Shown here piece after piece: positions 1-21,817 of a DNA stretch of 64,000 bases. Each line of letters begins with the position of its first letter. Position 1 is the stretch's first letter. The notes beneath the pieces are model-generated. The model was not told the DNA's origin and did no database searches. It saw only the letters and a program-made list of their open reading frames with translations. This stretch comes from a virus. Lineage: Duplodnaviria > Heunggongvirae > Uroviricota > Caudoviricetes. The stretch lies in the IMG/VR virus record IMGVR_UViG_3300023371_000083; one strand, written 5' to 3'. Made by a program: the position numbers and the translations under genes.

Positions 1-41
1 GAAAAAGCATTGGGCATTATGGAAAAAATTCTAAAAAATAA

Positions 42-70
42 TTGACTAAATTTTTTATTATAAATATAAT
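42..70 (+). promoter_or_regulatory. sigma70-like promoter (TTGACT-17 nt-TATAAT) with upstream CTAAAAAATA motif
   Basis: Direct read: TTGACT at 42-47, TATAAT at 65-70, 17-nt spacer. Preceded by the A-tract motif shared with the other early promoters. Confidence 0.5.
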
Positions 71-117
71 AATGAAGAACAGTATTTTTTAGTTTAGGTA
101 TACGGAGAGGTGATCCT

Positions 118-1047
118 ATGTACTATAATGAATTGATAAAAAAGAAATATTTAGAAAATTCACAGGAAAATAACGCAAATTATGCAGATAAATTATTTTC
201 TTTTTATGCAAGAATAGAAGAAGAGTTCGGTAAAGATTTAGCTGTATTTTCCAAAGAAGAAATTATAGATACATATTCTAAAATTTCATCTTTAAGTACT
301 TTAAGGAGACACCAATCTGTTTTAAGAAATTATACATCTTTTTATTTATCTGAAACTCATAATCAGGAAAACCAGAATGAATATGATAATATATTGGACG
401 ATGAATTGGTACAGATAATCAAATCAAATGCAAATAATAGAATGTATATCTCTAAATGGCAGCTCATGGAAATTTTAGAAGATCTGCCAAACGCTGTAGA
501 TAAATTTCTTGTATTGGCACTATATGAAGGTATTAAAGGTGATAATTTTGAAGATATCATCATGATGAAAATGAGTGATATCAATGAAAGAAACAATACA
601 ATTAAACTTTATAGTGGTAACACTATTAAAGTTAGTAGCACATTGGTACTTTTAGCGCAAGAAGCTTACTCGCAGAAATACTATAAAGGGATGCAGTCTT
701 CATTTACTATCTCATCAAAACCAGTAACACTTGATAAGAATGAATATGTTTTTAGGGTTAGAGCAAATTCAAAACTTACAGATAATGATACAGAAAAGAA
801 ATCTGCAAGAGTATATCAGCGTTTGCTTGCAATTAAAAAATATTTGGGAAATAATGATTTTTCATTATCAAGGATCATGAAGAGTGGTTATGTATATGAA
901 TTAAAGAAAATAAAGAGTCAATTTCCGGAATGTGCATGGGAAGATATGTTAGAAAAACCAGGCGTATATGATTTAACAATCAGATTTGGTTTAAATGCGA
1001 AAAAATATTATAATACTATCTGGTTATTAAAAGAATATTTAGATTAA
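118..1047 (+). CDS. hypothetical protein (N-terminal part weakly resembles a phage-integrase SAM-like DNA-binding domain; no catalytic motifs seen)
   Basis: Intact 309-aa ORF downstream of a strong promoter with TAA stop. Similarity is by eye only. Confidence 0.45.
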   Translation: MYYNELIKKKYLENSQENNANYADKLFSFYARIEEEFGKDLAVFSKEEIIDTYSKISSLSTLRRHQSVLRNYTSFYLSETHNQENQNEYDNILDDELVQIIKSNANNRMYISKWQLMEILEDLPNAVDKFLVLALYEGIKGDNFEDIIMMKMSDINERNNTIKLYSGNTIKVSSTLVLLAQEAYSQKYYKGMQSSFTISSKPVTLDKNEYVFRVRANSKLTDNDTEKKSARVYQRLLAIKKYLGNNDFSLSRIMKSGYVYELKKIKSQFPECAWEDMLEKPGVYDLTIRFGLNAKKYYNTIWLLKEYLD

Positions 1048-1087
1048 TAATAGGTGTACCAGTAAAGGTACACCTTTTTATTTTCAC

Positions 1088-1235
1088 AGATTAAACTAAA
1101 AAATATTGTTGACAGATTTATACAAAAAGTTTATAATTAATTTAGACTAAAAAATCTTGTTAATTTGTTGTGAAAAAATAGTGTAAAATTTTCTAAAAAG
1201 ACTATTGCAAAGATTCCGGTAAATGTTATAATAAG
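1088..1235 (+). promoter_or_regulatory. three tandem promoter-like elements (TTGACA-17-TATAAT at 1109-1137; weaker extended -10 element near 1160-1189; TTGCAA-16-TATAAT at 1205-1232)
   Basis: Direct read of -35/-10 hexamers. Each is preceded by a variant of the CTAAAAA(A)TATTGTTGAC motif. Confidence 0.45.
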
Positions 1236-1250
1236 TGCGAAATAGAACAA

Positions 1251-1559
1251 GTGTTCGATAAGGGAGGGATGTTAATGAAAAAACATATGAAAGAAATGGT
1301 GAAAAACCTTCTTGAAGAATTTTCAGAAAATGGAATGTCGTTGATCATAAACGTATTTTCAGATTTAGTTAATTTCTCTTATAGTGGCGATATAGAGTTG
1401 ATTCAAGACTCTGAAGATATGCTTATGGTCAATACTGTAGAATCATGTTTAAGTTTGAATTTTACTGATAATATGACTATTGAAGAATATGAGACAGAAT
1501 ATTCAAAAGCTATTTTATTAAAAAATACATATTCTTCTATAGAAATTTCTGGGGTATAA
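1251..1559 (+). CDS. hypothetical acidic protein
   Basis: ORF with a GGGAGGG ribosome-binding site (RBS) upstream. Codon usage is consistent with neighbours. Confidence 0.4.
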   Translation: MFDKGGMLMKKHMKEMVKNLLEEFSENGMSLIINVFSDLVNFSYSGDIELIQDSEDMLMVNTVESCLSLNFTDNMTIEEYETEYSKAILLKNTYSSIEISGV

Positions 1560-1613
1560 TCCCCAATTTTTTTAAGAAATTCTAAAATAAAAAATATTGT
1601 TGGAGGTGATTGT

Positions 1614-2738
1614 ATGAAAAATTTTGATTATGCTGCCACGAATCCTAAAATAGACGATGAGATCATTGATATTATTTCTGAAGTATTAAAAACAAATAAT
1701 GGTAATCCATCTGCTGTTTATAAAATTGGCAGAAATGCAAAAGAGATTATGGAAAATGCGAGAAGAAATGTTGCGGATATATTCGGATGCCAGCCAGAGG
1801 AAATTATTTTTACATCAGGTGGATCTGAAGCAAACAATATGGCTATTAAGGGTGTTGTGTTTGCGTCTACAAACAAAAGAAAGCACATTATTACAACAAA
1901 AATGGAACATAAAGCTATTCTTGAAACATGTGAATTTCTTGAAAAACACGGTTTTGCAGAAGTTACATATCTCGAACCGGGCAATATGGAATATATTACT
2001 CCCTGCCAATTAGAAGATGCGATTACAGAAGATACAGTGCTGATTTCTATTATGAGTGTTAACAACGAAGTTGGTATTACAAATCCAATATATAGATTAT
2101 CAGAAGTTGCACACAAACACGGGATACTGTTTCACACAGATGCCGTACAATTTTCTCGTGTCGGTGTTCCTATAGTATGGAAATTAGGAGTAGATTTAAT
2201 GTCTATATCTGGTCATAAATTTGGAGCCCCAAAAGGTATTGGTGTTTTATATATAAAAACAGGAACACCTATTGAGCCATTAATTCATGGCGGCGGACAA
2301 GAGTTCGGTCTTAGGGCTGGCACAGAAAATATTGCTTATATTGTTGCGTTAGGTGAAGCAATAAAAAAATTACCCAAATATGATTTTGCAGAACAATTTA
2401 ACCAAACAATTCGTCTTCGCAGGAAATTAAAAGATGCGTTTAAAGATGATATTAAATTTGCCAGTGAAAATAGCGATATTGCTGGTATTTTAAATTTTGC
2501 GATCAAAGGTGTCCCGGCATCTGAATTACAGGCATTTCTTGATATGAATGATATCTGTACATCTATTGGATCTGCATGTAGTTCTGGCGACCCTAAAGCC
2601 TCTCATGTTTTAGAGGCATTAAACATTCCGGAAATAGAAATCCATAATTATATGAGAGTATCAATTTCTGAAACGACAACAGATGATGAGATTGAAGAAT
2701 TTATTTCGTTATTAAAATTTTACACATCTATGAGATAA
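1614..2738 (+). CDS. cysteine desulfurase (class V aminotransferase, NifS/IscS family)
   Basis: Motifs TSGGSEANNMAIKG and SGHKFGAPKGIGVLY (PLP-lysine SGHK), plus the C-terminal active-site Cys region SACSSG. RBS GGAGGTGA. Confidence 0.8.
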   Translation: MKNFDYAATNPKIDDEIIDIISEVLKTNNGNPSAVYKIGRNAKEIMENARRNVADIFGCQPEEIIFTSGGSEANNMAIKGVVFASTNKRKHIITTKMEHKAILETCEFLEKHGFAEVTYLEPGNMEYITPCQLEDAITEDTVLISIMSVNNEVGITNPIYRLSEVAHKHGILFHTDAVQFSRVGVPIVWKLGVDLMSISGHKFGAPKGIGVLYIKTGTPIEPLIHGGGQEFGLRAGTENIAYIVALGEAIKKLPKYDFAEQFNQTIRLRRKLKDAFKDDIKFASENSDIAGILNFAIKGVPASELQAFLDMNDICTSIGSACSSGDPKASHVLEALNIPEIEIHNYMRVSISETTTDDEIEEFISLLKFYTSMR

Positions 2739-2754
2739 CAAGGAGTATAGAACA

Positions 2755-3006
2755 ATGAAGAAAAAAGATATCGTAGCAATCAACAAAGCAAAACAGAAAA
2801 AATTAAGTGAAATGTCCACAAAAGCACTTGATGTAGTGACAGCGACCATTATGCAATTAACAGCTGTAAACGGAGAGATTGATGAAACAGTCAATGATAT
2901 TAATGCTACTGTTGACGACTTAACAAATACAAAAACTGAATTAACAAGTCAGAAATCTAAAAACGAAACAATCATTAGTAAGTTTAAAAATTTAATTGGT
3001 GAATAA
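2755..3006 (+). CDS. hypothetical coiled-coil protein
   Basis: ORF with RBS AAGGAG. Confidence 0.4.
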   Translation: MKKKDIVAINKAKQKKLSEMSTKALDVVTATIMQLTAVNGEIDETVNDINATVDDLTNTKTELTSQKSKNETIISKFKNLIGE

Positions 3007-3112
3007 GAGGGTGATATGAATGGCTGAAACATGTTATGTGGCAGTCGTTTGTATGGCTGTTATTGTTTCTATCACATTGGATTTATTGAAAAAGGTTATG
3101 AAGAGGTAAACA

Positions 3113-3394
3113 ATGAGGTACATAGAAAATATTGTAATCGGAACACCGGTCGCATCACCAGAGAGTATGTTTGCCATAGATGATGCCGACTGGAAAAATG
3201 TAGAAGAAGAAAAAACATATTTTACAGAAGACAGATTTTTACCCAAAATTCTTGTGGATCTTGGTATTTATCCTTCCATTAGCGAGATTAGAAGAAATAG
3301 AAAAGACTTAGTTGTAACACTAGATAATGTTTGCTTTATTGATAAATTAAAAGTGAGCAAAAAACGAACAGTTTACATTCTGGTAGGAAAGTGA
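3113..3394 (+). CDS. hypothetical protein
   Basis: ORF track only. Confidence 0.35.
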   Translation: MRYIENIVIGTPVASPESMFAIDDADWKNVEEEKTYFTEDRFLPKILVDLGIYPSISEIRRNRKDLVVTLDNVCFIDKLKVSKKRTVYILVGK

Positions 3395-3409
3395 AAAGAG
3401 GTATCATAG

Positions 3410-3640
3410 ATGAAATTTGTTAGACCTAATTGTGAGAAATGTGTACATTCAGAAGTTTGTGGCAAAAAAGTTGATGTTGATATTTTAAAAAATGATATGG
3501 AACAAATGAAATATTTTTCTAATAAAGAATATCTACAGAAGTTGTCAATTTTCAGCGTAAAAATTGAGTGTAGACATTATCTCGATGTCACAAAAGTTGC
3601 CACAGCTTTAACTTCTAAAGAAGGTGTTGCGAATGTCTGA
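3410..3640 (+). CDS. hypothetical protein
   Basis: ORF with RBS AAGAGGT. Confidence 0.35.
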   Translation: MKFVRPNCEKCVHSEVCGKKVDVDILKNDMEQMKYFSNKEYLQKLSIFSVKIECRHYLDVTKVATALTSKEGVANV

Positions 3641-3779
3641 GTTATGCAAAGAATGCTTCATTGATATTTGGCAACTTTCCGATGAAGAAATTAATCAAAT
3701 TGTAATGAGTGATGACATTTATTTGTGTGAAGGTTGTGGAGAAGTAAAAGAATATGTATTAGAAATGCGTGGTGATTAA
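3633..3779 (+). CDS. small CxxC...CxxC zinc-ribbon protein (48 aa; not in ORF track)
   Basis: ATG overlaps the previous stop (ATGTCTGA). The reading frame is clean up to a TAA that overlaps the next ATG. Confidence 0.3.
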   Translation: MSELCKECFIDIWQLSDEEINQIVMSDDIYLCEGCGEVKEYVLEMRGD

Positions 3780-4271
3780 ATGAAGGTTGTATTTTTAGAT
3801 GTTGATGGTGTTTTAAACTGTGGTGAATCAAAATCAAGATGTGGTTGTTTTATTGGTATTGACGATAGCAGGGTAAAGCTTTTAAAAGAAATTATAGAAA
3901 AGACTGATGCAAAAATTGTATTAGTGTCTACATGGAAATTTGGATGGGAACCCATTGATAAAGAGGCAATGGACAGAGGTGGTATATACCTTGACAAAAA
4001 AATGAAAAGACAAGGGTTAACAATTATAGATAAAACATACGACAGAGGATGGAATAGAGGTCAAGGTATCAATCAGTACCTCGAAAAACATCCAGGGATC
4101 ACCTCTTGGATTATTCTTGATGATGAAACTTTTGAATATGAAGAAGAGGGGGTAATCTCCCATCTTGTTAAAACAAGTTTTTATAATGATGGTTTACAAG
4201 AAACTCATGTAAAAGATGCTATCGCAAGGTTAAATGAAAGTGATGGCACAAAAATTGAAAAGGGAGCTTGA
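3780..4271 (+). CDS. HAD-superfamily hydrolase (DxDGVLN motif; possibly polynucleotide 3'-phosphatase-like)
   Basis: N-terminal FLDVDGVLN motif I, followed by a VSTW motif-II-like region. Confidence 0.5.
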   Translation: MKVVFLDVDGVLNCGESKSRCGCFIGIDDSRVKLLKEIIEKTDAKIVLVSTWKFGWEPIDKEAMDRGGIYLDKKMKRQGLTIIDKTYDRGWNRGQGINQYLEKHPGITSWIILDDETFEYEEEGVISHLVKTSFYNDGLQETHVKDAIARLNESDGTKIEKGA

Positions 4272-4528
4272 TAGATATGATAATTATTGAATTTATCACT
4301 AAATCTATTAAGATTGTGTGCTGGTGCATAGCTAGATTTATTGTATGGATTGTAACAGCAAGAGATTGTAGACACTGTAAATATGGCAAACTGGAATCTT
4401 GTTATGCAGATGATTATTATAAATGCAAAAAAGCAGATTCGGAAACAAATTCCATGTACGACTACACACAAAATGTTATGGACTGTAAAAATAGTATTCT
4501 GAGAAAAAATTTCGAAAGAAAAAATTGA
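4268..4528 (+). CDS. hypothetical Cys-rich protein
   Basis: ORF track; start overlaps the previous stop. Confidence 0.35.
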   Translation: MIDMIIIEFITKSIKIVCWCIARFIVWIVTARDCRHCKYGKLESCYADDYYKCKKADSETNSMYDYTQNVMDCKNSILRKNFERKN

Positions 4529-4566
4529 TATAACTCATAATTGCAATAACTGAGAGGAGGAATTAT

Positions 4567-4968
4567 ATGTTGACATTTCCGTTTTTCTTAATCGTTTGTA
4601 TGTTGTTTTTGCATGTGGTAGATGACTATTATCTTCAGGGTATTCTTGCAAGCATGAAGCAGCGTGATTGGTGGTTAAAAAATACACCGGAAGATAAACA
4701 ATGTCTTTATTGTAAAGATTATTTAATGGCATTAGGAATGCACAGTTTTAGTTGGACATTTATGATTATGTTACCATTAACTTTTTATTATCTGATCAAT
4801 GATGGCGTATGGTTTCCAATGCTATATGTAATCAACACTATTATCCATTTTATTGTTGATGATACAAAAGCAAATAAAAAACGCATTAATCTTATTGAAG
4901 ATCAGACAATACATATTGGTCAAATCTTATTAACTTGGATTTGGTGTTATGTGATGTATGGAATGTAA
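4567..4968 (+). CDS. hypothetical membrane protein
   Basis: Hydrophobic segments. RBS GAGGAGG. Confidence 0.4.
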   Translation: MLTFPFFLIVCMLFLHVVDDYYLQGILASMKQRDWWLKNTPEDKQCLYCKDYLMALGMHSFSWTFMIMLPLTFYYLINDGVWFPMLYVINTIIHFIVDDTKANKKRINLIEDQTIHIGQILLTWIWCYVMYGM

Positions 4969-4980
4969 GGAGATGGGCTG

Positions 4981-5268
4981 ATGAGTAAAATTAAACCTGT
5001 TGAGGGGTATATATACTTTACTGAAACACAGCTTGTTAAATTAGAACATGCAATTGGATTTGATTTTCAATTAGTTAAAAATAATAAATTTATTTCTACT
5101 AGAAATTATTTTTCTTGCGAAAGAGTGGACGAAGATTGGGAATACTTATCCGCTGTTGGATATGCAAAACGTATCAACAGAGGAAAAAGGTTCCCTATTT
5201 ATACAGTGACAAGAAAAGGGAAAAACTTTATACAGCGAGTGACAAATGTAAAAATTATTGATGCGTAA
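4981..5268 (+). CDS. hypothetical protein
   Basis: ORF track. Confidence 0.4.
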   Translation: MSKIKPVEGYIYFTETQLVKLEHAIGFDFQLVKNNKFISTRNYFSCERVDEDWEYLSAVGYAKRINRGKRFPIYTVTRKGKNFIQRVTNVKIIDA

Positions 5269-5282
5269 CTTGAGGTGTTTAT

Positions 5283-5705
5283 ATGGAAAAGTTTAGTTTT
5301 AAGCAAGAAATAACCGCAGAACAATTGTTGGACTCTATTAGATGTGTTCATTCAATGTCTACATGCAACATTAAAAAAGTGTTTGGTGTACATATTGATT
5401 TTTTAGATAAAGATAGTTACACAAAATATGTTGTAGATAATTTTTCCACAAAAGAAATTATAGAAAAGGTAACAAAATGGCAAGAAGATAGGGTTTTTAA
5501 TAAAGATGATATTGTGTTGAATTTCGCATCTCAAAAGCTCTATATAGTTACATATATCGATGATTATAAAATCAAATTGATTGGATCTGATGGTGATACT
5601 CAATCTCATGATGCAAAAACCTTTTCTAAATGGTTTACAAAAACAGGTAATAAATGTAAATTAGAAAAATTTTTAATGAAAACATTAAAGGAAGATGGTG
5701 AGTAA
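5283..5705 (+). CDS. hypothetical protein
   Basis: ORF track. Confidence 0.4.
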   Translation: MEKFSFKQEITAEQLLDSIRCVHSMSTCNIKKVFGVHIDFLDKDSYTKYVVDNFSTKEIIEKVTKWQEDRVFNKDDIVLNFASQKLYIVTYIDDYKIKLIGSDGDTQSHDAKTFSKWFTKTGNKCKLEKFLMKTLKEDGE

Positions 5706-5707
5706 AC

Positions 5708-6136
5708 ATGTATAAACAGATTATTATTGCCAGAAAAGATTTGAATATGTCGCCAGGAAAATTAGCAGCACAGGTTGCTCATGGTAGTATGGCGTTTTTA
5801 ACAAACAGAATCAAAGAGGTTGCAAGAAGAGATTATATGGATGGTTATTATCTTGCAACACTGGCTTTTAATGATGAATTGTTCGACAACTGGATTAATG
5901 CATCTTTCACCAAAACAGTATTAAAAGCAAAAAATAAAAATCAATTATTAAAAGCAAAAACAATGGCTGAAGAATTAGGCATGAAAGAAGGAATCGATTT
6001 TTTCTGTATTTATGATAATTGCCTAACAGAGCTTGAGCCAGAAGAAGATGGCAGGACGCTAACTGTTATCGGGTTTAAACCTATGGATATAGAAATCATT
6101 GATCAGATTGGTAAGAAATATCAGTTGTATATATAA
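5708..6136 (+). CDS. peptidyl-tRNA hydrolase, PTH2 family-like
   Basis: N-terminal IIARKDLNMSPGKLAAQVAHGS resembles the PTH2 signature (VVRxDLxMxxGKIAAQxxH). Length about 140 aa fits the family. Confidence 0.55.
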   Translation: MYKQIIIARKDLNMSPGKLAAQVAHGSMAFLTNRIKEVARRDYMDGYYLATLAFNDELFDNWINASFTKTVLKAKNKNQLLKAKTMAEELGMKEGIDFFCIYDNCLTELEPEEDGRTLTVIGFKPMDIEIIDQIGKKYQLYI

Positions 6137-6170
6137 GAAGTATTGGAACGGAATATTGGGGAGTGATTAA

Positions 6171-7385
6171 ATGTTTGAATTAACAGGAAAATATAATACG
6201 GCTAAAGTATTTACTAACAATATTGAGCCAGAAGCAATCTCTCAGATTATCGAACTCTGCAACCAGGAATTTGTAAAAGAAAGCAAAATAAGAATTATGC
6301 CAGATGTTCATGCTGGTGCTGGCTGTACTGTTGGCACCACAATGACAGTCAAAGATAAGGTTGTCCCTAATTTGGTTGGTGTAGATATAGGCTGTGGCAT
6401 GTTGACAACAGCGATTGCAGAAAAAGAAATTGACTTAGCAAAACTAGATAAGTTGATTCATGATAAGATTCCGGCAGGATTTAATATCAGAAAGAAAAAA
6501 CATGATTATTTACGATATACAGACCTCACAAATTTAAGATGTATCGACCATGTAGATATGACAAGAGCAGAGCTGAGTCTAGGAACGCTTGGGGGCGGTA
6601 ATCACTTTATTGAAGCAGATCGTGACGATGATGGAAATATCTATATTGTCATTCATTCTGGAAGCCGACGCCTTGGTCTTGAAGTTGCAAAGTATTATCA
6701 AGAAGAAGCGTATAGATACCTTAACGGCTCTACAAAAGAAGATGCTGAGAAATTAATTGCAAAACTGAAATCTGAAGGTAGACATAGAGAGATCGAATCC
6801 GAGTTGGCAAAATTAAAGAATGTTAAACGAACCAGCGTTCCAAAACACCTTGCTTATCTGGAAGGAAAGTTATTACAGGATTATATTTGGGATATGAACA
6901 TTGTTCAGAAATATGCAATGTGGAATCGCTGTGCAATGATGGATGAAATCATTGATGGCATGAATTTGACAGATATTGGTTCTTTTACAACTATTCACAA
7001 CTATATTGCACCTGAAGGCGGAGACAGAATTATCTTGCGTAAAGGCGCTGTGGCAGCGTATGAAGGTGAATGGTTATTAATTCCTATTAATATGAGAGAT
7101 GGTAGTTTGATTTGTGAAGGCAAAAGTAATCCAGAATGGAACTATTCTGCTCCTCATGGTGCTGGTCGTATTATGAGTAGAAGTCAAGCGAAATCTACTT
7201 TTAAAATGGATGATTACATTGCAGAAATGAAAGATGTATATACAACTTCTGTTTCTACAGACACTTTAGATGAATGTCCTATGGCATACAAGAATATGCA
7301 GGAAATCATTGATAATATCGGTGATACGGTAAATGTGTTGAAAGTAATTAAACCGATTTATAATTTCAAAGCTGGTGGAGAGTAA
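6171..7385 (+). CDS. rtcB: RtcB-family RNA ligase (3'-phosphate/5'-OH ligase)
   Basis: Motifs MPDVHAGAGCTVG, GGGNHFIE and APHGAGR match RtcB metal-binding and GMP-binding signatures. Confidence 0.85.
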   Translation: MFELTGKYNTAKVFTNNIEPEAISQIIELCNQEFVKESKIRIMPDVHAGAGCTVGTTMTVKDKVVPNLVGVDIGCGMLTTAIAEKEIDLAKLDKLIHDKIPAGFNIRKKKHDYLRYTDLTNLRCIDHVDMTRAELSLGTLGGGNHFIEADRDDDGNIYIVIHSGSRRLGLEVAKYYQEEAYRYLNGSTKEDAEKLIAKLKSEGRHREIESELAKLKNVKRTSVPKHLAYLEGKLLQDYIWDMNIVQKYAMWNRCAMMDEIIDGMNLTDIGSFTTIHNYIAPEGGDRIILRKGAVAAYEGEWLLIPINMRDGSLICEGKSNPEWNYSAPHGAGRIMSRSQAKSTFKMDDYIAEMKDVYTTSVSTDTLDECPMAYKNMQEIIDNIGDTVNVLKVIKPIYNFKAGGE

Positions 7386-7400
7386 AGGAAAGGTGTCTCA

Positions 7401-7754
7401 ATGTTTCGGAAAATATTTACAGGCAAAAACAGCAGCACAGTGGTAGTCGATGGCAAAACTTATGAAGTCGAAGGCAATAACATTATGATTCGCAACGGCA
7501 AAATTATTGTTGATGGTAAAGTAATCAATGATGAAAAAGTCGGTGTTTCTAAAGTGATTGTTACAGGAAATTGCGAAAGCATTAATTGCGATGGCTCTGT
7601 AGAAATAAACGGCGATTCTGGCAGGGTTAAATGTGGAGGTAGTTGTCATATTGGTGGAAATGTCACTGGTGGTGTTTTTGCTGGTGGATCTGTAACCTGT
7701 GGAAATATTGAAGGCGATGTTCTTTCCAGTGGAAGTGTAATAGCTAAAGGATGA
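7401..7754 (+). CDS. bactofilin-like / polymer-forming Gly-rich beta-helical protein
   Basis: Repetitive V/G-rich segments (GxVxGxV...), typical of a bactofilin domain. Confidence 0.4.
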   Translation: MFRKIFTGKNSSTVVVDGKTYEVEGNNIMIRNGKIIVDGKVINDEKVGVSKVIVTGNCESINCDGSVEINGDSGRVKCGGSCHIGGNVTGGVFAGGSVTCGNIEGDVLSSGSVIAKG

Positions 7755-13693: not shown

Positions 13694-14162
13694 AGAATAT
13701 ACATGTGGATTTAAATATTGCTCACATGAAAATAAAAAAGTGCCAGAGGGTGAGGCAATAAAGTCCGGTACAAGGTATTTCCATAAAGATTGTTTACGAG
13801 TAAGAGATAATATGGATGCTGTAAAACGTATTTATTATGAAAATATTAGTAATACGGTTGTTATAGCACAATTGGTAAAAGTCATTCAAACCATTGTAAT
13901 CAACAAAGGTGTTGATTCTGAATTTCTGTTATTTGCAATTAAATATGCAGTCGCAAAAAAAATGACAATTAGAAGCCCATACGGATTACATTATTTAATT
14001 GATAATGCAATGATAAAAAATGCGTGGAACGCAAAACAAGCAAAAGAAGAAAAACAGAAAATTACTGAATTAGCTAAGTTACAACCGAGAGAATCTGAAG
14101 TGACTTTTACAGTTGCAAAAAGAAAAAAAGAAGGTTTTGATAGTATTTTTGGAGGTGGTTAA
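13686..14162 (+). CDS. hypothetical protein
   Basis: In-frame ATG at 13686 overlapping the upstream stop (ATGGCTAA). The ORF track's 13605 start is probably too early. Confidence 0.4.
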   Translation: MAKEYTCGFKYCSHENKKVPEGEAIKSGTRYFHKDCLRVRDNMDAVKRIYYENISNTVVIAQLVKVIQTIVINKGVDSEFLLFAIKYAVAKKMTIRSPYGLHYLIDNAMIKNAWNAKQAKEEKQKITELAKLQPRESEVTFTVAKRKKEGFDSIFGGG

Positions 14163-15513
14163 TTTGGATACAAGAGAAATTTGTGATATTCAGGCGGAAA
14201 GCGGTGTCATTGCAACTTTGGTTTATCATCCAGAATATATCCTTCATTCAGAATATTTAAAAGCCGGGTATTTTTCAAGTAAGGATAATGGTTGTATCTA
14301 CTGGGCGATTAATGAACTGTTTAAAAGAGGCATTGATAATATTGATGCTTTCAACATTTCAAATATGATTGCCAGTCATCCTGCGGTGCAAAGAACAATT
14401 GATCAATATAATATGCCAGCAATTCAAGAATTTATTGATATGTGTGATGAAGTTGCTAGACACAGCATCGAAGAATACACAATGCTGGCAAAAGCTGTTA
14501 CAACATATGCTTTCAAAAGAGATTTGATGAAATTAACAACTGAAGTTGAAGCCAACTGCAGAAATAGGGCAATTGGTTTAGGAGAATTAAATGATGTTGT
14601 TTTTAAAAAATTAAATTCTCTAACAGAAAAATATATCGTATCAAGTGAAATTAAAATGTTTGGTGATTCTTCAGAATTCTTATGGGAAGAAATCTGCGAT
14701 AGAAGAAACGACAGTGGTACTTATGGTATACCTTCTAAGTATGAATCACTGAATGAATATTACACATATGAGCCTGGGGAGCTTGTTGTGGTACAGGCAA
14801 AGTATAAGCAAGGTAAAAGTGTTTTCCTGCTAAACGAAACTGTACATAAATTAAAAAACGGTGTGCCAACACTTGTTGTAGATACAGAAATGTCTGACAG
14901 ATTGTATATGGAACGTCTAGTGTCACATGTTTCTGGTATTGAAGTTAAGCGAATTAAAAATGGTAGATATACACCAGAAGAAGGAGAACGTATTAGAGAA
15001 GCGAGAGAATGGATTAAAAAACAGCCATTTGTTCATATCTACGATCCAGATATGACAGATGAAAAACTTTATTCTATTTGCAAAATTCTTAAATATAAAA
15101 TGGACTTACAGTTTGTTGTATATGATTACATCAAAAGTAACGAAACATCTTCTTCTGATAATTACAATATTCTTGGTGCGAAATGTGATTTTCTTAAAAA
15201 CAATATTGCCGGTGATTTAAACTTGGCTGTTTTATCTGCGTGCCAGCTAAACAGAAATGGTGAAGTTGCCGACTCTATGAAAATCAACAGATACCTTTCC
15301 GTTGGTATTAAATGGTTTATTAAAACACAAGAACAAATTATGCGTGATGGTTCTGACTGTGGTAATGCTGGATTAAAAATCTATGTAAATAGACTTGGAC
15401 AGCAGATGCCAGAGGATGACGAGTTTGTGTATATCGACTTCTTTTTTGAAGGAGACACGATGAATATTACAGAGGCAAAACAACATTTAGACGAAGAAAC
15501 TCCGTTTGATTAA
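14113..15513 (+). CDS. dnaB: DnaB-like replicative helicase
   Basis: DnaB N-terminal-like region followed by a RecA-like domain. A TTG at 14164 with RBS GGAGGTGG is a likelier start than the track's 14113. Confidence 0.6.
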   Translation: MQKEKKKVLIVFLEVVNLDTREICDIQAESGVIATLVYHPEYILHSEYLKAGYFSSKDNGCIYWAINELFKRGIDNIDAFNISNMIASHPAVQRTIDQYNMPAIQEFIDMCDEVARHSIEEYTMLAKAVTTYAFKRDLMKLTTEVEANCRNRAIGLGELNDVVFKKLNSLTEKYIVSSEIKMFGDSSEFLWEEICDRRNDSGTYGIPSKYESLNEYYTYEPGELVVVQAKYKQGKSVFLLNETVHKLKNGVPTLVVDTEMSDRLYMERLVSHVSGIEVKRIKNGRYTPEEGERIREAREWIKKQPFVHIYDPDMTDEKLYSICKILKYKMDLQFVVYDYIKSNETSSSDNYNILGAKCDFLKNNIAGDLNLAVLSACQLNRNGEVADSMKINRYLSVGIKWFIKTQEQIMRDGSDCGNAGLKIYVNRLGQQMPEDDEFVYIDFFFEGDTMNITEAKQHLDEETPFD

Positions 15514-16536
15514 TTGAGAGAGGGTGGTGAGATGACGGCGTATGATCCTAATGTATTAGAGGAAATTGAAAAAAATGTAGATTTACTTGAATATGTTTCC
15601 CGAAATATAGAAATGCGTCAGCAGGGGGCTGAGTATTTTGGAAGCTGTCCACTTCATGTTGATAAAACGCCGTCTTTCTCAATTACGCCATCTAAAAATA
15701 AATTTTATTGCTTTTCCTGTGGTAATGGTGGCGGAATTATATCTTTTTTGATGAAGTATGAGCAAATGTCTTTTGACGATGCGGTTCAAAAAGCAGCTAA
15801 ACTTGGAAACATTGATATGAGTAAAATGTGTCAATCACAGACAGTTGCATTCCTGAGAAACATCAAAAAACATAAAGCGAAAAAGACTTGTGTTACACAT
15901 GACGAAGTTGCAATTACCGAATGGAATAAATATATGGTCGGAGAAGTAACGGAATGGATTTCAGAGGGGATCAGACAAGAAGAGATTGATTATTTTGAAA
16001 TTAGAATTGACAACAAAACTAATCGTATTGTTTATCCTGTAAAAGATATTAATGGGAAATTAATAAACATTAAGGGCAGGACACGTTTTCCCAATTATAA
16101 ACTTTTTAATATTGCTAAATATATCAATTATTTTAAAGTTGGCTGTTTAGATTATTTTCAGTGTCTGGACAAGACAAAAGAGTTTGTTTACGAGAAAAAT
16201 GAAATTATTATTTTTGAATCAATCAAAAGTGTAATGAAGTGTTTCGGCTGGGGGTATAAAAACTGTGCATCTGCAGAAAACCATACAATGTCTGATGAGC
16301 AAATCAGATTATTGATTAGATTAAGAGTAGATGTTGTATTGGCATACGATAAAGACGTTGACTATTTTTCAAAAGAAGTTTGGAAGCAAATTGAAAAACT
16401 GAAAAAATTTACAAATGTTTATATCATTGAAGATAAAGGTAATTTATTGGGGAGTAAAGATGAAAAGAACTCTCCTGCAGATCTTGGGGAAGATGTGTGG
16501 GAAAAATTATATGAAAAGAAGCGAAGGATTATATGA
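15514..16536 (+). CDS. dnaG: DNA primase (DnaG-like, zinc-binding CHC2 + TOPRIM)
   Basis: CPLHVDKTPSFSI...FYCFSCG zinc ribbon, followed by a TOPRIM-like region. Confidence 0.75.
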   Translation: MREGGEMTAYDPNVLEEIEKNVDLLEYVSRNIEMRQQGAEYFGSCPLHVDKTPSFSITPSKNKFYCFSCGNGGGIISFLMKYEQMSFDDAVQKAAKLGNIDMSKMCQSQTVAFLRNIKKHKAKKTCVTHDEVAITEWNKYMVGEVTEWISEGIRQEEIDYFEIRIDNKTNRIVYPVKDINGKLINIKGRTRFPNYKLFNIAKYINYFKVGCLDYFQCLDKTKEFVYEKNEIIIFESIKSVMKCFGWGYKNCASAENHTMSDEQIRLLIRLRVDVVLAYDKDVDYFSKEVWKQIEKLKKFTNVYIIEDKGNLLGSKDEKNSPADLGEDVWEKLYEKKRRII

Positions 16537-17327
16537 GCAGATATAAAAATAAATTAGACGAAATGACATGGAGCTTTAGTAGAGTTCATTCATATGAAAC
16601 TTGCCCATATCAATTCTATCTGAACTATGTTGCCAAAAATAAGTACGGCATCAGTAATTTCTACGCTGAATTAGGGCATTTCATGCATGAAGTGTTAGAG
16701 AAGGTGTTACGAAAAGAGTTGAAGTTAGAAGATGCTGCGACATATTTTGTAAACAACTTGGATGCTAATATTTCTAATTTTGTAAAACAATCAACAATGG
16801 ATAGATCAATTGACGCCTGTATTGACTATCTGGCTGAAACAGATTTAGAAATGTTAGATGGTTTTGAAATAGTAGGGGTTGAACTTAAATGTCGTTACAG
16901 CCTTCAAGAAGAGATAGATTATATTGGGTTCATTGACTTATTAATTAAGCATAAAGAAGAAGGATATTATGTGATTGTCGATCATAAATCGTCTGGATAT
17001 CCACTTAAAAAGAATGGCGAAGTATTAAAAAACGAAGAAGAGAATTTTAAATCATATAAAAGACAAATTTATCTTTATAGTAAATACGTTTTTGAAAAAT
17101 ATGGCGAATATCCAAAAGAATTATGGTGGAATCATTTTAAGGTAAATAAAGTAGTAAAAATTCCATTTGACTTAGATGAATATCATGAAGCCCAGAATTG
17201 GTTTATGGAAACGATTGCAAATATTTATAAAGATGAAGACTTTTTGCCTAATATGAGTTATATGCAATGCAACGTGTTATGTGACTTCAGAGAGGAGTGT
17301 GAATATCAGTTATATGGTAATGATTAA
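16533..17327 (+). CDS. PD-(D/E)XK nuclease, Cas4/RecB-like with 4-Cys cluster
   Basis: N-terminal Cys (CPYQFYL), VIVDHKS (D-x-K motif), and a C-terminal CNVLCDFREEC cluster. Confidence 0.6.
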   Translation: MSRYKNKLDEMTWSFSRVHSYETCPYQFYLNYVAKNKYGISNFYAELGHFMHEVLEKVLRKELKLEDAATYFVNNLDANISNFVKQSTMDRSIDACIDYLAETDLEMLDGFEIVGVELKCRYSLQEEIDYIGFIDLLIKHKEEGYYVIVDHKSSGYPLKKNGEVLKNEEENFKSYKRQIYLYSKYVFEKYGEYPKELWWNHFKVNKVVKIPFDLDEYHEAQNWFMETIANIYKDEDFLPNMSYMQCNVLCDFREECEYQLYGND

Positions 17328-20300
17328 TCAAGAAATGGTCGGCAAAACTTATACACCATATCATGTTCACACAGACCTCTCTACCGGGGTCACTAATGTA
17401 GATAGTGTAACTAAATATAAAGATTACATTGCAAGAGCAAAAGAATTAGGCATGAAGGCATTTGCTTTTTCAGAACACGGATCTGTATTCGAGTGGCTCC
17501 ATAAAAAAGAAGCAATCGAGGAAGCTGGAATGAAATACATCCATGCTGCTGAGGTATATCTTACAGAAACATATGAAGAAAAAATTAGAGATAATTACCA
17601 TTGTGTTCTTATTGCAAAAAACTTTGATGGCTTCAAAGAAATTAATAAGTTAATTTCAAAATCTTTCTTAAAAGAACATTATTATTATTCTCCAAGAATT
17701 TTAATCGATGATGTTATTAATACATCTGAAAATGTAATTATTACATCTGCGTGTCTCGGCGGTGTTTTTGGAAAAGGTACAAGCAGTGCAAAAGAAAAAA
17801 TGCTTTGTTTTGCAATTGCGAATAAAGATAGATTTTTCTTAGAAGTACAGCATCACAACATTGATAAACAAAAAGAATATAATAAACTTCTGTATCAGAT
17901 CAGCAAAGAATATGGAATTAGATTAATTGCTGGCACTGATACACATTCTTTAGATGATAAACATGCAAGAGGCAGGGTAATTTTACAGAAAGCAACTGAT
18001 ACATTTTTCTCTGATGAAGAGGGTTGGGATTTAACTTTTAAAAGTTATGATGAGCTTGTTGAAGCATATTATAAACAAAATGTATTACCAGAAGATGTAT
18101 TTATGAAAGCCATTGAAAACACAAATGTTATGGCAGATATGGTAGAAGAATTTACATTGGACAGAAGCACGAAATATCCGAAAATTTATGAAAATTCAAA
18201 AGAGATATTTGAGCAAAAAGTCAGAGAAGCTTGTAAAAATCATAAATACATTCAACAGCGTTATACACAGGAAGAAATTGATAAGTTCATTAAAGAAGAG
18301 CTTGAAGTATATGAAAAAACAGAGTCTATCGACTTTATGCTTCTTGAAAACCATAAAAAAGAATGGGAAACAGAGAATGGTATCCAGAGAGGTTATGGTA
18401 GAGGTTCTGTATCTGGTAGCATGATTGCTTATGCGCTTGGTATTACAGAAATGGATTCCAAAAAATTTGGTCTTAACTTTTTCCGCTTCCAGAATCCAGA
18501 CCGTGTTACTAACTGTGATATTGATGTGGATTATAGTGAAAAAGATAGGGAAAAGGTAAAAACATTTATTCTTAGAGATCATATGAATCTGGATAATCTT
18601 CGTTCTTGCGACATTATCACATTTAACACAATTGCGCTCAAAGGTTCTATCAAATATGTTGGTAAAGCCCTTGATTATCCAATTGAAATTACACAGGCAC
18701 TATCAAATGGTGTGTATCTTGATGAAGAGGGTAAAGAAACAGTTGCACCTGAAATTAGAAAAGCATATCCCGATATTTTTGAGTATGTAGACATTGTAAA
18801 AGGCACAGTTATTTCTATTGGCACTCATGCAAGCGGCGTTGTAGTAAGTGACCTTGAAATTGACGAAATGTTTGGTACATGCAGTGTAAAAGATTCTGAA
18901 TATCCAGTCTCAATGATTAACATGAAAGAACTCGATGCTCTGATGTATGTTAAATTAGATATCCTTGGTCTTGATAACATCGGTGTAATTAATGAAACAT
19001 GTAGAATTCTTGGAATTGATCGTTTAAACCCAGATAATACTGACCTGAATGACGAAAATGTTTGGAAAAGTATCAGGGAAGATACGACGCTCATTTTTCA
19101 ATGGGAATCAGAGTCAGCACAATCTTATTTAAAAAGATTTATGTCTGATAAAACAATTCAAAAAGTAAAGAAACGAAATGAAGATTTTTCCTATATCAAA
19201 TGGTTTTCATTTGGTAATGGTCTACTGAGACCTGCGTGTGCCAGCTACAGAGATTCCGTTGCGAGTGGTGAGTTTTATCAGAATGGTTTAAAAGAGCTCG
19301 ATGATTTTCTTGCCCCAACTATGGGACATGTAACTATGCAGGAAGATATTATGCAATTTCTTGTAAGATTTTGTGAATACACTCAAGCAGAATCCGATAC
19401 AGTACGTCGAGGTATTGCAAAAAAATATGGTACTGAAAAGTTTCTACCTGAAATTGAAGAGCGATTTACGAGTCATGCGACAGACGCATATGAATTAAAA
19501 ACTGATGAATGTTCTGAAATTATCAAGCCGTTTTTGCAGGTAATTTTAGATGCATCAAAATATTCTTTTTCTTGGAATCACTCTGATGCATATAGCTGTG
19601 TAGGATATATTTGTGGATATTTAAGATATTATTATCCATTAGAATTTATTACTGCAGCGATGAATGTATTTAGATCAAAGGTAGAAAAAATCGGGAATAT
19701 CGTTAAATATTCAAAAAAATCAAATGTTGAATTAATGCCTATTCGATTCAGATATTCAAAATCAGATTATATGTTTGATAAAGATAACAACACAATTTAT
19801 AAAGGCGTATTTTCTGTAAAAAGTGTAAACGAACAAGTATCTGATGATTTATATGCTCTTCGTGATATGAAATTTGATAACTTTATGGAATTAATTACAT
19901 ATTGCAAAATGAATTTTCCCATTAAATTTAATCAGATTGAGGCATTAATTAAACTTGAGTATTTTAAAGAGTTTGGAGAAATTCCATATCTTTTAACATG
20001 TTTAAATGTTTTTAAAGTATACCACAAAAGATCTACATTAAAAAAAGAAGAAGTTCGGGATCTTGGTATCTCTTATGATGAAATCAAAAAGTTTTGCGGA
20101 AAAGAAACAGCGAAACAGTATTCACAAGTTGATATGAGTTGTTTTATGAATTTGGTTGTCCAAAAGCAATATACACACAGAGAAGTGACCATCGGTGAGA
20201 TTTTATCTTATCAAGATAAATATCTTGGATATATTGATTTTGCTGATTCCAAATATTCCAAATTCGTTCTTATCGAGAAAGTTGATACAAAATTTTCCCC

Positions 20301-20550
20301 TAAATTAACTGCGTATACATTATCTAAAGGTAAGAGGATTCCTTTAAAAATCAGTAAAACACAATTTAGAAAAAACCAGGTAAACGAGGGTGATGTTGTT
20401 CAGATTCTGAATTGGGAAAAGAATGTAAGACGAGTAAAAGATAGTAATGGAGAATGGTCTGCTATTCCGAATGAGTATGACTGGTGGCTTACAAACTACC
20501 GGATTGTTGATAACATCAAAAAATATGATTCAAAAGAAGAGGAGGTGTAA
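17281..20550 (+). CDS. dnaE: DNA polymerase III alpha-like (DnaE/PolC family, N-terminal PHP domain)
   Basis: PHP motifs YHVHTDLS and FAFSEHGS. 1089 aa with no internal stops. The likely true start is the ATG near 17314. Confidence 0.75.
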   Translation: MTSERSVNISYMVMINQEMVGKTYTPYHVHTDLSTGVTNVDSVTKYKDYIARAKELGMKAFAFSEHGSVFEWLHKKEAIEEAGMKYIHAAEVYLTETYEEKIRDNYHCVLIAKNFDGFKEINKLISKSFLKEHYYYSPRILIDDVINTSENVIITSACLGGVFGKGTSSAKEKMLCFAIANKDRFFLEVQHHNIDKQKEYNKLLYQISKEYGIRLIAGTDTHSLDDKHARGRVILQKATDTFFSDEEGWDLTFKSYDELVEAYYKQNVLPEDVFMKAIENTNVMADMVEEFTLDRSTKYPKIYENSKEIFEQKVREACKNHKYIQQRYTQEEIDKFIKEELEVYEKTESIDFMLLENHKKEWETENGIQRGYGRGSVSGSMIAYALGITEMDSKKFGLNFFRFQNPDRVTNCDIDVDYSEKDREKVKTFILRDHMNLDNLRSCDIITFNTIALKGSIKYVGKALDYPIEITQALSNGVYLDEEGKETVAPEIRKAYPDIFEYVDIVKGTVISIGTHASGVVVSDLEIDEMFGTCSVKDSEYPVSMINMKELDALMYVKLDILGLDNIGVINETCRILGIDRLNPDNTDLNDENVWKSIREDTTLIFQWESESAQSYLKRFMSDKTIQKVKKRNEDFSYIKWFSFGNGLLRPACASYRDSVASGEFYQNGLKELDDFLAPTMGHVTMQEDIMQFLVRFCEYTQAESDTVRRGIAKKYGTEKFLPEIEERFTSHATDAYELKTDECSEIIKPFLQVILDASKYSFSWNHSDAYSCVGYICGYLRYYYPLEFITAAMNVFRSKVEKIGNIVKYSKKSNVELMPIRFRYSKSDYMFDKDNNTIYKGVFSVKSVNEQVSDDLYALRDMKFDNFMELITYCKMNFPIKFNQIEALIKLEYFKEFGEIPYLLTCLNVFKVYHKRSTLKKEEVRDLGISYDEIKKFCGKETAKQYSQVDMSCFMNLVVQKQYTHREVTIGEILSYQDKYLGYIDFADSKYSKFVLIEKVDTKFSPKLTAYTLSKGKRIPLKISKTQFRKNQVNEGDVVQILNWEKNVRRVKDSNGEWSAIPNEYDWWLTNYRIVDNIKKYDSKEEEV

Positions 20551-21251
20551 TGGTGAATAAATACGTGATCACAGATGGTATTAGATATATTGCAAAAAAT
20601 AAAGCTGGTTCCTATGTTCCTGAACATGATGCAAGCAAAGCTTTAATTCTTTCTAAAGGTGATGCAGAAAAGATTTATTATAATAATTTAGCAAAACCCC
20701 TGAGAAAAGTTTTTAGATTGTCAAAAGACGCAGTTCCAACAATAAAATCTTCAGAAAGTACAAAAATTGAAGATACAGCGATTGAAGACAAAAAGGTTAT
20801 CGAATGTAAGCCAGATATAAAAACAACAGATGCAATCATTAAGCAGGATGCGAGTAAAAAAGAAATAAAATACACCAAGCATTATGATACAAAATGCGGG
20901 CTTGATGATGAATTAACAACACAGATTGTTCAGGTAGTAGAGATATTTAAGAGTGCTGCAACAAAAAAAGCTGATCTACAATCAAAATTAGATAAAGTAG
21001 AAAAAGAAATTGTTGATATCAACCATTACATTGAATTCAAATCTTTGAATGCATGTGATGGATATAATGCCTACAGAATGTTGCGGGACAGATTAACAAA
21101 ACGAAGAAAATTAAAAAATGAATTAAAGGTTGCAGAAATTCTTGCAAAAGGAATTTTCACAACTTCCGATATTACAGATATTGAGAAAGTTATTAGTTCT
21201 TTCGATAAAAATCAATATCGTCCTAGAGTTCTCAGTGATTTATTTGAATAA
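20550..21251 (+). CDS. hypothetical coiled-coil protein
   Basis: ORF track. Confidence 0.4.
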   Translation: MVNKYVITDGIRYIAKNKAGSYVPEHDASKALILSKGDAEKIYYNNLAKPLRKVFRLSKDAVPTIKSSESTKIEDTAIEDKKVIECKPDIKTTDAIIKQDASKKEIKYTKHYDTKCGLDDELTTQIVQVVEIFKSAATKKADLQSKLDKVEKEIVDINHYIEFKSLNACDGYNAYRMLRDRLTKRRKLKNELKVAEILAKGIFTTSDITDIEKVISSFDKNQYRPRVLSDLFE

Positions 21252-21262
21252 GGAGGATTATC

Positions 21263-21817
21263 ATGAGGGAAGTTTATAAAGTTAAAAAAGGTGACATTGT
21301 TCGACTGGTAAAAGCAAATACATTTGATTATGTGGAACATCCTTATATTGCACATTTTATCAATAAAAATTTTGAAGTCGTTGATGTAAATAAATATAGA
21401 ATTACTGTGCTAAGAGATAACACAAAAATCGAATGTTATGCCGAATATTTTTATGATTATTTTAAAGTAGTAAAACCTGCAAAAGTAAAAGAAGAAACCG
21501 AAACAAATAAAAAGCAAACCAAAGTATCCAACGAGAAACCCGTTGAAAAGAAAACAGAAAATAAAAAATGGACTGATTGGACAACAATTAAAATTTTCGG
21601 TGAGGATTATGCATATAAAACTGATGGTAAAACAGTTATTCTGCGTAATGGTGGTTGTAAGGGTGTAAGCAAATGCCATGATGAGGATGAATTTAATTTA
21701 ACAAAAGGTCTTGAAATTGCATTTAATAGGCTGGTAGCTATGAGAACAGAAAAAGCCATTAATGATGCAAGGGCGGATCTTGATAAAAAAGTAAAAGTAA
21801 AGAAGAGAACTGTATGA
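21263..21817 (+). CDS. hypothetical protein
   Basis: ORF with RBS AAGGAGG. This is the last TAG-free gene before the recoded block begins. Confidence 0.4.
   Translation: MREVYKVKKGDIVRLVKANTFDYVEHPYIAHFINKNFEVVDVNKYRITVLRDNTKIECYAEYFYDYFKVVKPAKVKEETETNKKQTKVSNEKPVEKKTENKKWTDWTTIKIFGEDYAYKTDGKTVILRNGGCKGVSKCHDEDEFNLTKGLEIAFNRLVAMRTEKAINDARADLDKKVKVKKRTV

Follow-up and report, generated by a model that had tools for sequence, protein, structure and literature searches.

Borges et al. (bioRxiv 10.1101/2021.08.26.457843) described recoded gut phages in which the reassigned stop codons are confined to late and lysis genes while the integrase is kept in the standard code, and proposed that this arrangement times lysis and serves as a lysogeny switch. 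Block-wise genetic codes are described in the Mgcod preprint, and the 136-kb gut phages of the phAss-1 type ('Phassvirus', PMC10607447) carry 41 TAG-interrupted open reading frames (ORFs) together with three tRNA-Sup(CTA) genes. A tyrosine (Tyr, Y) meaning of TAG in phages was found, within the text that could be searched, only in Kienbeck et al. 2024 (PMC10879173), where 1.1% of 180 phage suppressor transfer RNAs (tRNAs) were predicted to be of the Tyr isotype. Here we analyse a 64,000-nucleotide (nt) stretch of a tailed phage genome (Caudoviricetes; IMG/VR record IMGVR_UViG_3300023371_000083), referred to as the window, in which a long early gene block free of in-frame TAG is followed by genes that carry TAG as a sense codon, very probably for Tyr, and we describe a CUA-anticodon tRNA-like gene of the same genome as the putative decoder. 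The gating model and the pattern of TAG-free integrase and replication genes were already published by Borges et al.

Results

With only TAA and TGA treated as stops, the plus strand between 118 and 21817 holds 31 tightly packed main-chain genes, 23 ending in TAA and eight in TGA, with neither an in-frame TAG nor a TAG stop among them. The same 20.8 kb contain 223 off-frame TAG triplets, and the depletion is therefore frame-specific. This block has no TAG beside 378 Tyr codons, compared with 31 TAG among 691 Tyr and TAG codons (660 Tyr) downstream (Fisher p = 1.3e-6; about 16 TAG expected). The first-pass annotation had read every ORF of this interval as TAG-free and closed by TAA or TGA, which is correct for the 31 main-chain genes, with two probable exceptions discussed below. 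Likewise, the early genes it had named keep their identities: DnaB and primase, like Sak and the PD-(D/E)XK nuclease, are Pfam matches, and the ORF of 1089 amino acids (aa), named DnaE, has tblastn matches in phage genes annotated as DNA polymerase III alpha, with 45% identity to Clostridioides phage pCD1602_4. The block is in fact longer than had been described: it extends some 31 kb beyond the left end of the window as far as a divergent control region, which gives about 53 kb up to window position 21817, and no more than one small gene in it is closed by TAG. Elsewhere TAG is used as the stop of 31% of long ORFs in pCD1602_4 and of 7% in related metagenomic loci; TAG stops would be expected in a block imported from a standard-code phage, and their absence here speaks against such an import.

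The first sense TAG of the main gene chain lies at 21916, in a gene whose start overlaps the previous stop (ATGA, 21814-21817), so the abrupt onset of recoding reported at 21.8 kb stands for the main chain, the two probable exceptions lying upstream of it. Downstream, the plus strand carries 17 sense TAG in 12 of 19 genes (1.36 TAG per kb) and the minus strand 14 in 10 of 27 genes (0.52 per kb), compared with zero in the early block. The earlier statement that almost every gene after 21814 contains TAG was thus too strong, as 22 of 46 do and the largest tail genes have none. The codon that interrupts genes is always TAG, never TAA or TGA. Pfam domains run across TAG in NrdD (three times), ThyX, the two P-loop kinases (AAA_28), the 3D-domain protein, guanylate kinase and the metallophosphatase, and TAG also falls inside the conserved domains of the TerL-like protein and ClpP. 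In NrdD, the ATP-cone (residues 12-98) and NRDD (124-751, E=6e-141) domains together span all three TAG codons; the alignment of the HAD phosphatase to PDB 9iqw_A crosses its TAG, and an internal repeat unit of the 1279-aa tail protein crosses one of that gene's two. Reading TAG as sense raises the coding fraction at 21.8-34.7 kb from 79% under genetic code 11 to 97% and reduces the median gap between genes from 76 to 3 nt, compared with 11.5 nt in the early block. As the first-pass annotation had proposed, TAG downstream of 21.8 kb is almost certainly read through, and it is never needed as a stop, while three minus-strand TAGs that stand 5-28 codons ahead of TAA or TGA (genes 38800-39378, 43575-44474 and 55524-55808) could act as leaky stops.

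TAG is unevenly placed within these genes. At 21.8-34.7 kb, the first 40 codons of the genes hold 12 of the 17 TAG, compared with 25 of the 198 Tyr codons (p=4e-7), a clustering to be read with the reservation that some start codons were picked by gene packing and that only five of the 12 N-terminal TAGs lie under a Pfam domain. Furthermore, the gene of the YonO-like RNA polymerase, outside the window, holds seven TAGs.

Comparison with homologous proteins points to Tyr as the amino acid inserted. At codon 330 of the YonJ-like protein Y is found in 111 of 118 homologs, at codon 236 of the TerL-like protein in 22 of 22 and at its codon 41 in six (F in two), at codon 37 of ClpP in all five standard-code homologs, and at the TAG sites of a PD-(D/E)XK and an HNH endonuclease in three of three each. 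Codon 314 of NrdD has Y in 47 homologs, I in 34, V in 25, L in 12, F in six and Q in none, and six of the eight matches printed for this column show Y (five with 'EGxYHNLN', one with 'EALYHNLN'). In addition, codon 96 of the HAD phosphatase corresponds to Y in PDB 9iqw ('GLKYHNL'), the TAG of a GIY-YIG endonuclease falls on the Y of the 'YIG' motif and on Y in a paralog, codon 191 of the 408-aa tail/fibre protein aligns with Y in its sole homolog, and the unit STGQQ[TAG]IDT of the 1279-aa tail protein has Y at the same place in three paralogous repeats (STGSQYIDT, STGTQYINT and CDGNQYINT). Over the informative TAG columns Y is the top residue in at least ten, and glutamine (Gln, Q) in none; the other TAG columns are variable or hydrophobic, again with Gln top in none. 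Database proteins with Q at these sites are translations made by gene callers, and the underlying DNA has TAG. A phmmer search of ThyX against PDB gave no match. We therefore consider it very probable that TAG means Tyr and not the Gln assumed by gene callers. Genetic code 29, in which both TAA and TAG mean Tyr (Mesodinium), was ruled out, as 54 of the 77 window genes end in TAA and none is interrupted by it.

Read-through of this kind calls for recoding machinery, as the first-pass annotation had pointed out, and a CUA-anticodon tRNA-like gene is present in the same genome. In the window itself, no tRNA was found by ARAGORN or by Rfam (gathering and E-value modes). About 27 kb past its right end, where the minus-strand arm begins, the same contig continues with a tRNA array; the gene order there is YonO-like RNA polymerase, a 304-aa protein, ClpP, an HU-like protein, the tRNA array, Ro60/TROVE with two Y-RNA-like matches, more tRNAs, an ArfA-like peptide, YonJ and terminase; no further tRNA was found in the rest of the genome outside the array. 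The CUA gene exists in two forms, a canonical tRNA in sister strains (L081, L082 and L102), here called type A, and a variant RNA in the window's own strain (six assemblies), type B.

Type A is the second tRNA of the array, 86-87 nt long, with a CUA anticodon, a long variable arm and A73 (Rfam tRNA, 44.3 bits), and its anticodon arm equals that of the phage's own tRNA-Tyr(GUA) except for G34C. Against isotype hidden Markov models (HMMs) made from the tRNAs of this phage family (701 ARAGORN calls, about 270 distinct sequences), it reaches 31.6 bits for Tyr, 16.6 for Trp, 13.8 for Leu and 8.1 for Ser, with no match for Gln. Type B occupies the same array slot with 84 nt. At minimum energy it folds into a cloverleaf that shows CUA in a 7-nt loop, a hairpin in the variable arm and A73, and it differs from type A by four compensatory double changes with all acceptor and anticodon-stem pairs kept, and only the Tyr model matches it (12 bits). 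Both types share the 7-nt anticodon loop CUCUAAA with U33 and a purine at position 37, the variable-arm hairpin and the discriminator A, while the T-loop is UUCGAUU in type A and the non-canonical GGCAGUA in type B. Together, the lineage clearly encodes a putative amber suppressor of Tyr type, and it appears reasonably likely that the phage CUA RNA is what decodes TAG in the strain of the window. A Leu or Ser identity for the long-armed suppressor was dropped on the basis of the protein columns, which show Y and not L or S, and of the HMM scores given above. A release factor or an aminoacyl-tRNA synthetase as the recoding device was also dropped, as none occurs in the Pfam lists of the genome. 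A theta- or HDV-like ribozyme beside the tRNAs had no match in an Rfam scan, where the content of Rfam 15 was not checked for a theta-ribozyme model.

The tRNA region shows further peculiarities. Homing-endonuclease genes (two GIY-YIG, one HNH and one PD-(D/E)XK) are located among the tRNA genes, and strains that are otherwise near-identical differ in them; an adjacent GIY-YIG insertion travels with the type B allele. A 44-aa ORF between the array and YonJ matches ArfA (alternative ribosome-rescue factor A, which recruits RF2) in Pfam with 28.1 bits at a cutoff of 25.5 through its KGKGSYKRKEKH motif, and the exact peptide is found on 21 contigs. The two Y-RNA-like (YrlA) matches inside the array are both sub-threshold.

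Concerning the promoter class of the suppressor, the unit of ClpP, HU-like gene and tRNAs has a perfect consensus sigma-70 promoter (TTGACA-17-TGnTATAAT, 12/12). A 16-nt motif, AACTAAAAAATATTGT, occurs seven times in the window where 0.57 copies are expected, and again in the flanks. Some copies fall on the -35 element of consensus sigma-70 promoters, among them that of the ClpP/suppressor-tRNA unit, and on promoter-like sites at window 1094 and 11747, the latter copy covering the -35 element of the site at 11762-11790. Others stand just 5' of a ribosome-binding site (RBS), often after a run of T. The motif may be an operator or a 5' untranslated region element common to the early operons and the suppressor operon. 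Because the suppressor operon promoter carries this early-promoter motif, the suppressor is more likely to be made early than late; it looks co-regulated with the early promoters and readable by host RNA polymerase. A simple scan found neither promoter nor terminator at the 21.8-kb boundary, the nearest strong promoter-like site being that at 11762-11790. Since the boundary thus lies without promoter or terminator inside one co-directional gene string, any gating at 21.8 kb would be translational.

Two genes in the early block are the probable exceptions mentioned above. The first-pass annotation had noted that a Sak start at 12104 would put TAG at codon 4. The longer form indeed fits Pfam SSAP_Sak better (positions 2-129, 101 bits) than the shorter one (18-129, 98.1 bits), so Sak probably starts at 12104, with TAG as its fourth codon. 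The CxxC-rich ORF at 11845-12111 carries two TAGs, which either are read through or include its stop, and is a possible exception to the TAG-free claim. For the small ORF that follows the 11.77-kb promoter, the start may be ATT (11863), 6 nt 3' of AGGGGGT.

The early block also contains a pair for NAD salvage, which consists of a NadR-like NMN adenylyltransferase/ribosylnicotinamide kinase and the transporter PnuC. In addition, the phage as a whole has a dense set of RNA-repair and translation-rescue genes, comprising HAD_SAK_2, the peptidyl-tRNA hydrolase PTH2, the ligase RtcB, the nucleotidyltransferase RlaP, a Thg1-like enzyme and, inside the tRNA array, Ro60/TROVE. Possible ties of these genes to recoding are peptidyl-tRNA drop-off at early UAGs or defence against anticodon nucleases.

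Beyond the plus-strand genes, the serine recombinase of roughly 550 aa is free of TAG, as had been reported, and reaches about 551-553 aa only with an ATT start. Three ATT codons (36770-36776) stand 5-11 nt after the RBS AAAGGAGGT, and the upstream extension restores Resolvase profile position 1 together with the catalytic Ser motif; the ATT start is favoured because ATG at 36698 would drop the catalytic 'YVRVST' motif. The holin had been listed among the recoded genes, and its TAG at codon 57 is present, whereas its identity as a holin stays putative, the Holin_LLH match being sub-threshold (20.8 bits at a cutoff of 24.9, E=5e-4). The two overlapping ORFs of the TAG-free tail gene (overlap 57488-57576, 89 nt) result from a 2-nt (GT) deletion at about 57508 relative to other assemblies, 8-9 nt from the end of a source contig, which is probably an artefact of joining contig ends. 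A programmed frameshift was dropped as explanation, since the overlap sits where contig ends were joined and other assemblies lack it.

The window represents about half of a phage genome of about 129 kb (129.3 kb), which was closed by walking along the window's own contig (positions outside the window are given on L-numbered loci); exact-protein look-ups place it on circular-looking contigs from several metagenomes. JGI contig Ga0257077_10000703 is 100% identical to the window, whose sequence recurs in more than 20 independent assemblies from different samples. Within the window, genes run on the plus strand from 118 to 34707 and on the minus strand from 35115 to 63758. The first 53 kb or so of the plus-strand arm, with early, RNA-repair and replication genes, are TAG-free and its last 13 kb, with nucleotide metabolism, are recoded, and the minus-strand arm, which contains the YonO-like RNA polymerase, ClpP, terminase, tail genes, the sugar cluster and the putative holin, is recoded all along from its first genes including the polymerase. 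By gene content, the phage is an SPbeta-like temperate phage with two long divergent gene arms, a membership in the broad group only, given protein identities of 26-45%. It is based on the YonO-like RNA polymerase (860-881 aa, DHDGD motif, with tblastn matches in SPbeta-like Bacillus phages), the large serine recombinase, the DnaE-type polymerase and SPbeta structural families, with Pfam YonJ (YonJ_CC), YonG (YonG_N), YonB, YomU, YomV and YomW precomputed on genes neighbouring the window.

Among cultured phages, the closest relatives have Clostridioides, Thomasclavelia and Enterocloster as hosts, and a gut bacterium of the Clostridia is the probable host here. An exact search for a host or prophage with the suppressor anticodon arm gave no match in IMG/VR and three chance matches in GTDB genomes. 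Megablast of window 14000-34000 against GenBank phages had no match, walks in IMG/VR returned mostly distant relatives or nothing, and a metagenome scan found only relatives at up to 61% identity, whose arrays of 15-22 tRNAs contain no CUA tRNA. In related phages with 57-69% protein identity (L010-L042 and L045-L058), up to 24 tRNA genes (15-24 in long array-spanning loci) include no CUA anticodon, and TAG makes up only about 7% of stops, a condition that resembles the state before recoding put forward in published work.

Table 1 Features of the window and of its flanking loci (window positions unless an L-numbered locus is given)
Feature	Position	Strand	Details
TAG-free block	118..21817	+	MrpR-like tyrosine recombinase, cysteine desulfurase-like, HAD_SAK_2, PTH2, RtcB, NadR-like, PnuC, Sak, DnaB, primase, PD-(D/E)XK nuclease, DnaE
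NAD salvage pair	8159-9986		NadR-like, PnuC
RNA-repair/translation-rescue set	3780-4271, 5708-6136, 6171-7385; L099:3188-4216, 5548-6417; L043:1177-2814, 3082-3355		
Promoter-like site	11762..11790	+	TTGACC-17-TGcTATAAT, 11/12 matches
AACTAAAAAATATTGT motif, window	79-94(-), 1094-1109, 1145-1160, 1585-1600, 11747-11762, 11833-11848		
AACTAAAAAATATTGT motif, flanks	L095:5119, 9201, 9220, 9307; L097:12562, 12784, 17006, 19583		
Small CxxC...CxxC ORF in largest early gap	11845..12111	+	TAG at 12073-12075 and 12085-12087; weak Zn-ribbon match
Sak single-strand annealing protein	12104..12700	+	TAG codon 4 (12113-12115) if start 12104; alternative start 12140 avoids TAG
TAG-containing distal plus arm	21814..34707	+	19 genes, 17 sense TAG in 12 genes, 12/17 in first 40 codons; Zn-ribbon protein, two P-loop kinases, 3D-domain, ThyX, DUF7768, NrdD, NrdG, Bax1-I, ligase, metallophosphatase, SPFH, FolD, dUTPase-like
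NrdD anaerobic ribonucleotide reductase, 756 aa	25086..27356	+	TAG codons 22, 95, 314 (25149, 25368, 26025)
Large serine recombinase (integrase)	35115..36776	-	TAG-free; Resolvase, Recombinase, Zn_ribbon_recom domains; probable ATT start
Peptidase_C39_2-like, candidate endolysin	37341..38078	-	TAG-free
Putative holin	38102..38428	-	N-terminal transmembrane segment; TAG codon 57 (38258-38260)
HAD phosphatase-cupin fusion, NeuB/cytidylyltransferase sugar cluster	40268..40969	-	TAG codon 96 (40682-40684); cupin domains by Pfam
Two tail/fibre proteins, 408 and 445 aa	45726..48302	-	two sense TAG each
Baseplate/fibre protein, 1279 aa, DUF5048	49610..53449	-	TAG codons 319, 716 (52493, 51302); three ORFs under code 11
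Tail protein, two overlapping ORFs (1281 + 586 aa)	55816..61333	-	TAG-free; single 1839-aa gene in other assemblies
Homing-endonuclease genes	L095:10626-11276; L043:245-970, 4661-5221; L008:405-1004		two GIY-YIG, one HNH, one PD-(D/E)XK
ArfA-like ORF	L043:5330-5464, L095:16541-16675		44 aa

Discussion

Taken as a whole, the explanation that we consider quite probable is that TAG means Tyr, that a phage CUA tRNA decodes it and that the products of TAG genes are delayed until this suppressor is available. The decoder would be a tRNA-Tyr-derived CUA tRNA, a natural supF-like suppressor encoded by the second gene of an array that would be co-transcribed with ClpP and the HU-like gene. TAG-free genes would be translated at once by host ribosomes, without need of the suppressor, while TAG genes would give full-length protein only once the charged suppressor competes sufficiently with release factor 1, so that middle enzymes, the late RNA polymerase, virion and lysis proteins would be delayed until tRNA(CUA) builds up. 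In a lysogen, TAG genes would stay silent even with leaky transcription. Where TAG lies within the first 40 codons, a failed reading would free only a short peptide, and failure would be cheap. Temporal gating and a safeguard of lysogeny are what we infer from this arrangement, and they coincide with the published hypothesis; whether the gating is adaptive rather than the outcome of a passive constraint we regard as evenly balanced. More tentatively, we propose a natural amber-to-Tyr code whose commonest suppressor allele is aberrant and in which the code switch would stand upstream of the transcriptional switch, the YonO-like polymerase with its seven TAGs being unmakeable until the suppressor works and the N-terminal TAGs acting as cheap gates of middle genes.

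Several points weigh against this interpretation. Both the timing and the insertion of Tyr are read from sequence patterns, and some TAG columns are uninformative or favour other residues, namely NrdD codons 22 and 95, S and V in an 85-aa protein, I in YuiC and F in a beta-CASP protein. TAG is missing from about half of the late genes, and the 21.8-kb boundary is located inside an apparently continuous string of genes that overlap by ATGA. The early-type promoter of the suppressor means that any delay could be short. Moreover, type B was missed by ARAGORN even at relaxed settings and by Rfam at E<=10, and its folding energy is unremarkable (z=-0.5), tRNA folding z-scores being uninformative; this RNA could be defective or charged with another residue. 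Nor did the GTDB and IMG/VR searches with the anticodon arm find a host whose genetic code could be read.

The serious rival, although in our view unlikely, keeps the recoding and dispenses with adaptive gating: Tyr codons would drift to TAG where this is tolerated and would be purged from genes translated before the suppressor accumulates. Such drift would suit a TAG share of only 3-15% of Tyr codons, the half of late genes that lack TAG, a boundary that does not coincide with a transcription-unit edge and a suppressor under an early-type promoter, and the low TAG stop usage of standard-code relatives (7%) fits the drift route of Borges et al. However, drift does not predict the N-terminal clustering of TAG at 21.8-34.7 kb, which fits selection for early, cheap abortion of translation, and the seven TAGs in the late RNA polymerase gene are not expected under neutrality and fit the same selection.

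Ordinary genetic code 15, with TAG meaning Gln through a Gln-type suppressor as in crAss-like, Lak and phAss-1 phages, would leave the regulatory logic unchanged, and according to PMC9523058 it is the only TAG reassignment validated experimentally in phages. We nevertheless consider it highly improbable here: public gene callers do give Q for TAG in this lineage, but these residues stand on TAG in the DNA, and although Q occurs at NrdD codon 95 in eight homologs, it is top at no informative column whereas Y is at ten or more. A tRNA-Gln(UUG) is located directly upstream of the CUA RNA, which itself has a long variable arm and no match to the Gln HMM.

That the in-frame TAGs are real stops, in genes that are split, decaying or damaged by assembly next to a TAG-free part that is intact or a recent standard-code import, has a negligible chance of being right, since domains and internal repeats cross TAGs, interruptions are by TAG only, the same sequence occurs in more than 20 assemblies from different samples and an import should have TAG stops, even though many code 11 fragments keep start codons, three TAGs are near C-termini and the window contains one true assembly artefact, at about 57508.

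For annotation, these observations mean that pipelines either fragment the genes of this lineage (code 11) or give TAG as Gln (callers aware of code 15). If TAG is Tyr, all recoded database proteins of the lineage carry Tyr-to-Gln errors, including motif residues such as the Y of GIY-YIG. If true, phage amber reassignment is not limited to Gln (or Trp), and a new code can arise from a single base change in the anticodon of a phage tRNA-Tyr. The recoded late RNA polymerase and the N-terminal TAGs provide concrete, mutable targets for the long-standing idea that recoding times lysis and guards lysogeny. Additionally, a compact natural Tyr amber suppressor for Bacillota, and its odd T-loop variant, could serve genetic-code work if active.

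Compared with known systems, the Tyr prediction of Kienbeck et al. is an isotype call by tRNAscan, without protein-level evidence or a genome description. With phAss-1 the phage shares a similar genome size, a large tRNA set and TAG in about a quarter to half of ORFs; in phAss-1, however, TAG matches conserved Gln and the suppressor is reported as Gln-type (PMC10607447), and phAss-1 was not among the 20 DnaE tblastn matches listed. In common with the recoded gut phages of Borges et al. (Garnet and Topaz prophages, crAss-like, Lak and Agate phages) are TAG in later genes including structural genes and the putative holin, integrase and replication genes kept in the standard code, and relatives with low TAG stop usage; a putative suppressor tRNA is likewise encoded by the phage itself. 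In contrast to them, TAG aligns here with Tyr and not with Gln, the putative decoder is a tRNA-Tyr-like RNA with a long variable arm, and the genome is that of an SPbeta-like temperate phage of about 129 kb with a large serine recombinase, a recoded late RNA polymerase and N-terminal TAG clustering in one block. With SPbeta it has in common the YonO-like single-subunit RNA polymerase, Yon/Yom families, a DnaE-type polymerase, a large serine recombinase and two long divergent arms, yet protein identity is only 26-45%, and a tRNA array and TAG recoding are present here, neither of which SPbeta itself has to our knowledge. A close parallel to the putative decoder is E. coli supF (su3+), a laboratory-mutant tRNA-Tyr(CUA) amber suppressor that inserts Tyr at UAG in competition with release factor 1. 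The shared traits are the tRNA-Tyr body, the G34 to C change that gives CUA, the long variable arm and A73, whereas the phage gene is natural, phage-borne and used genome-wide, with a degenerate T-loop in the copy of the window's strain. Overall, this phage adds to the published pattern a probable Tyr meaning of TAG, a suppressor allele of unusual structure, a late polymerase gene that is itself recoded and a concentration of TAG near N-termini in one block.

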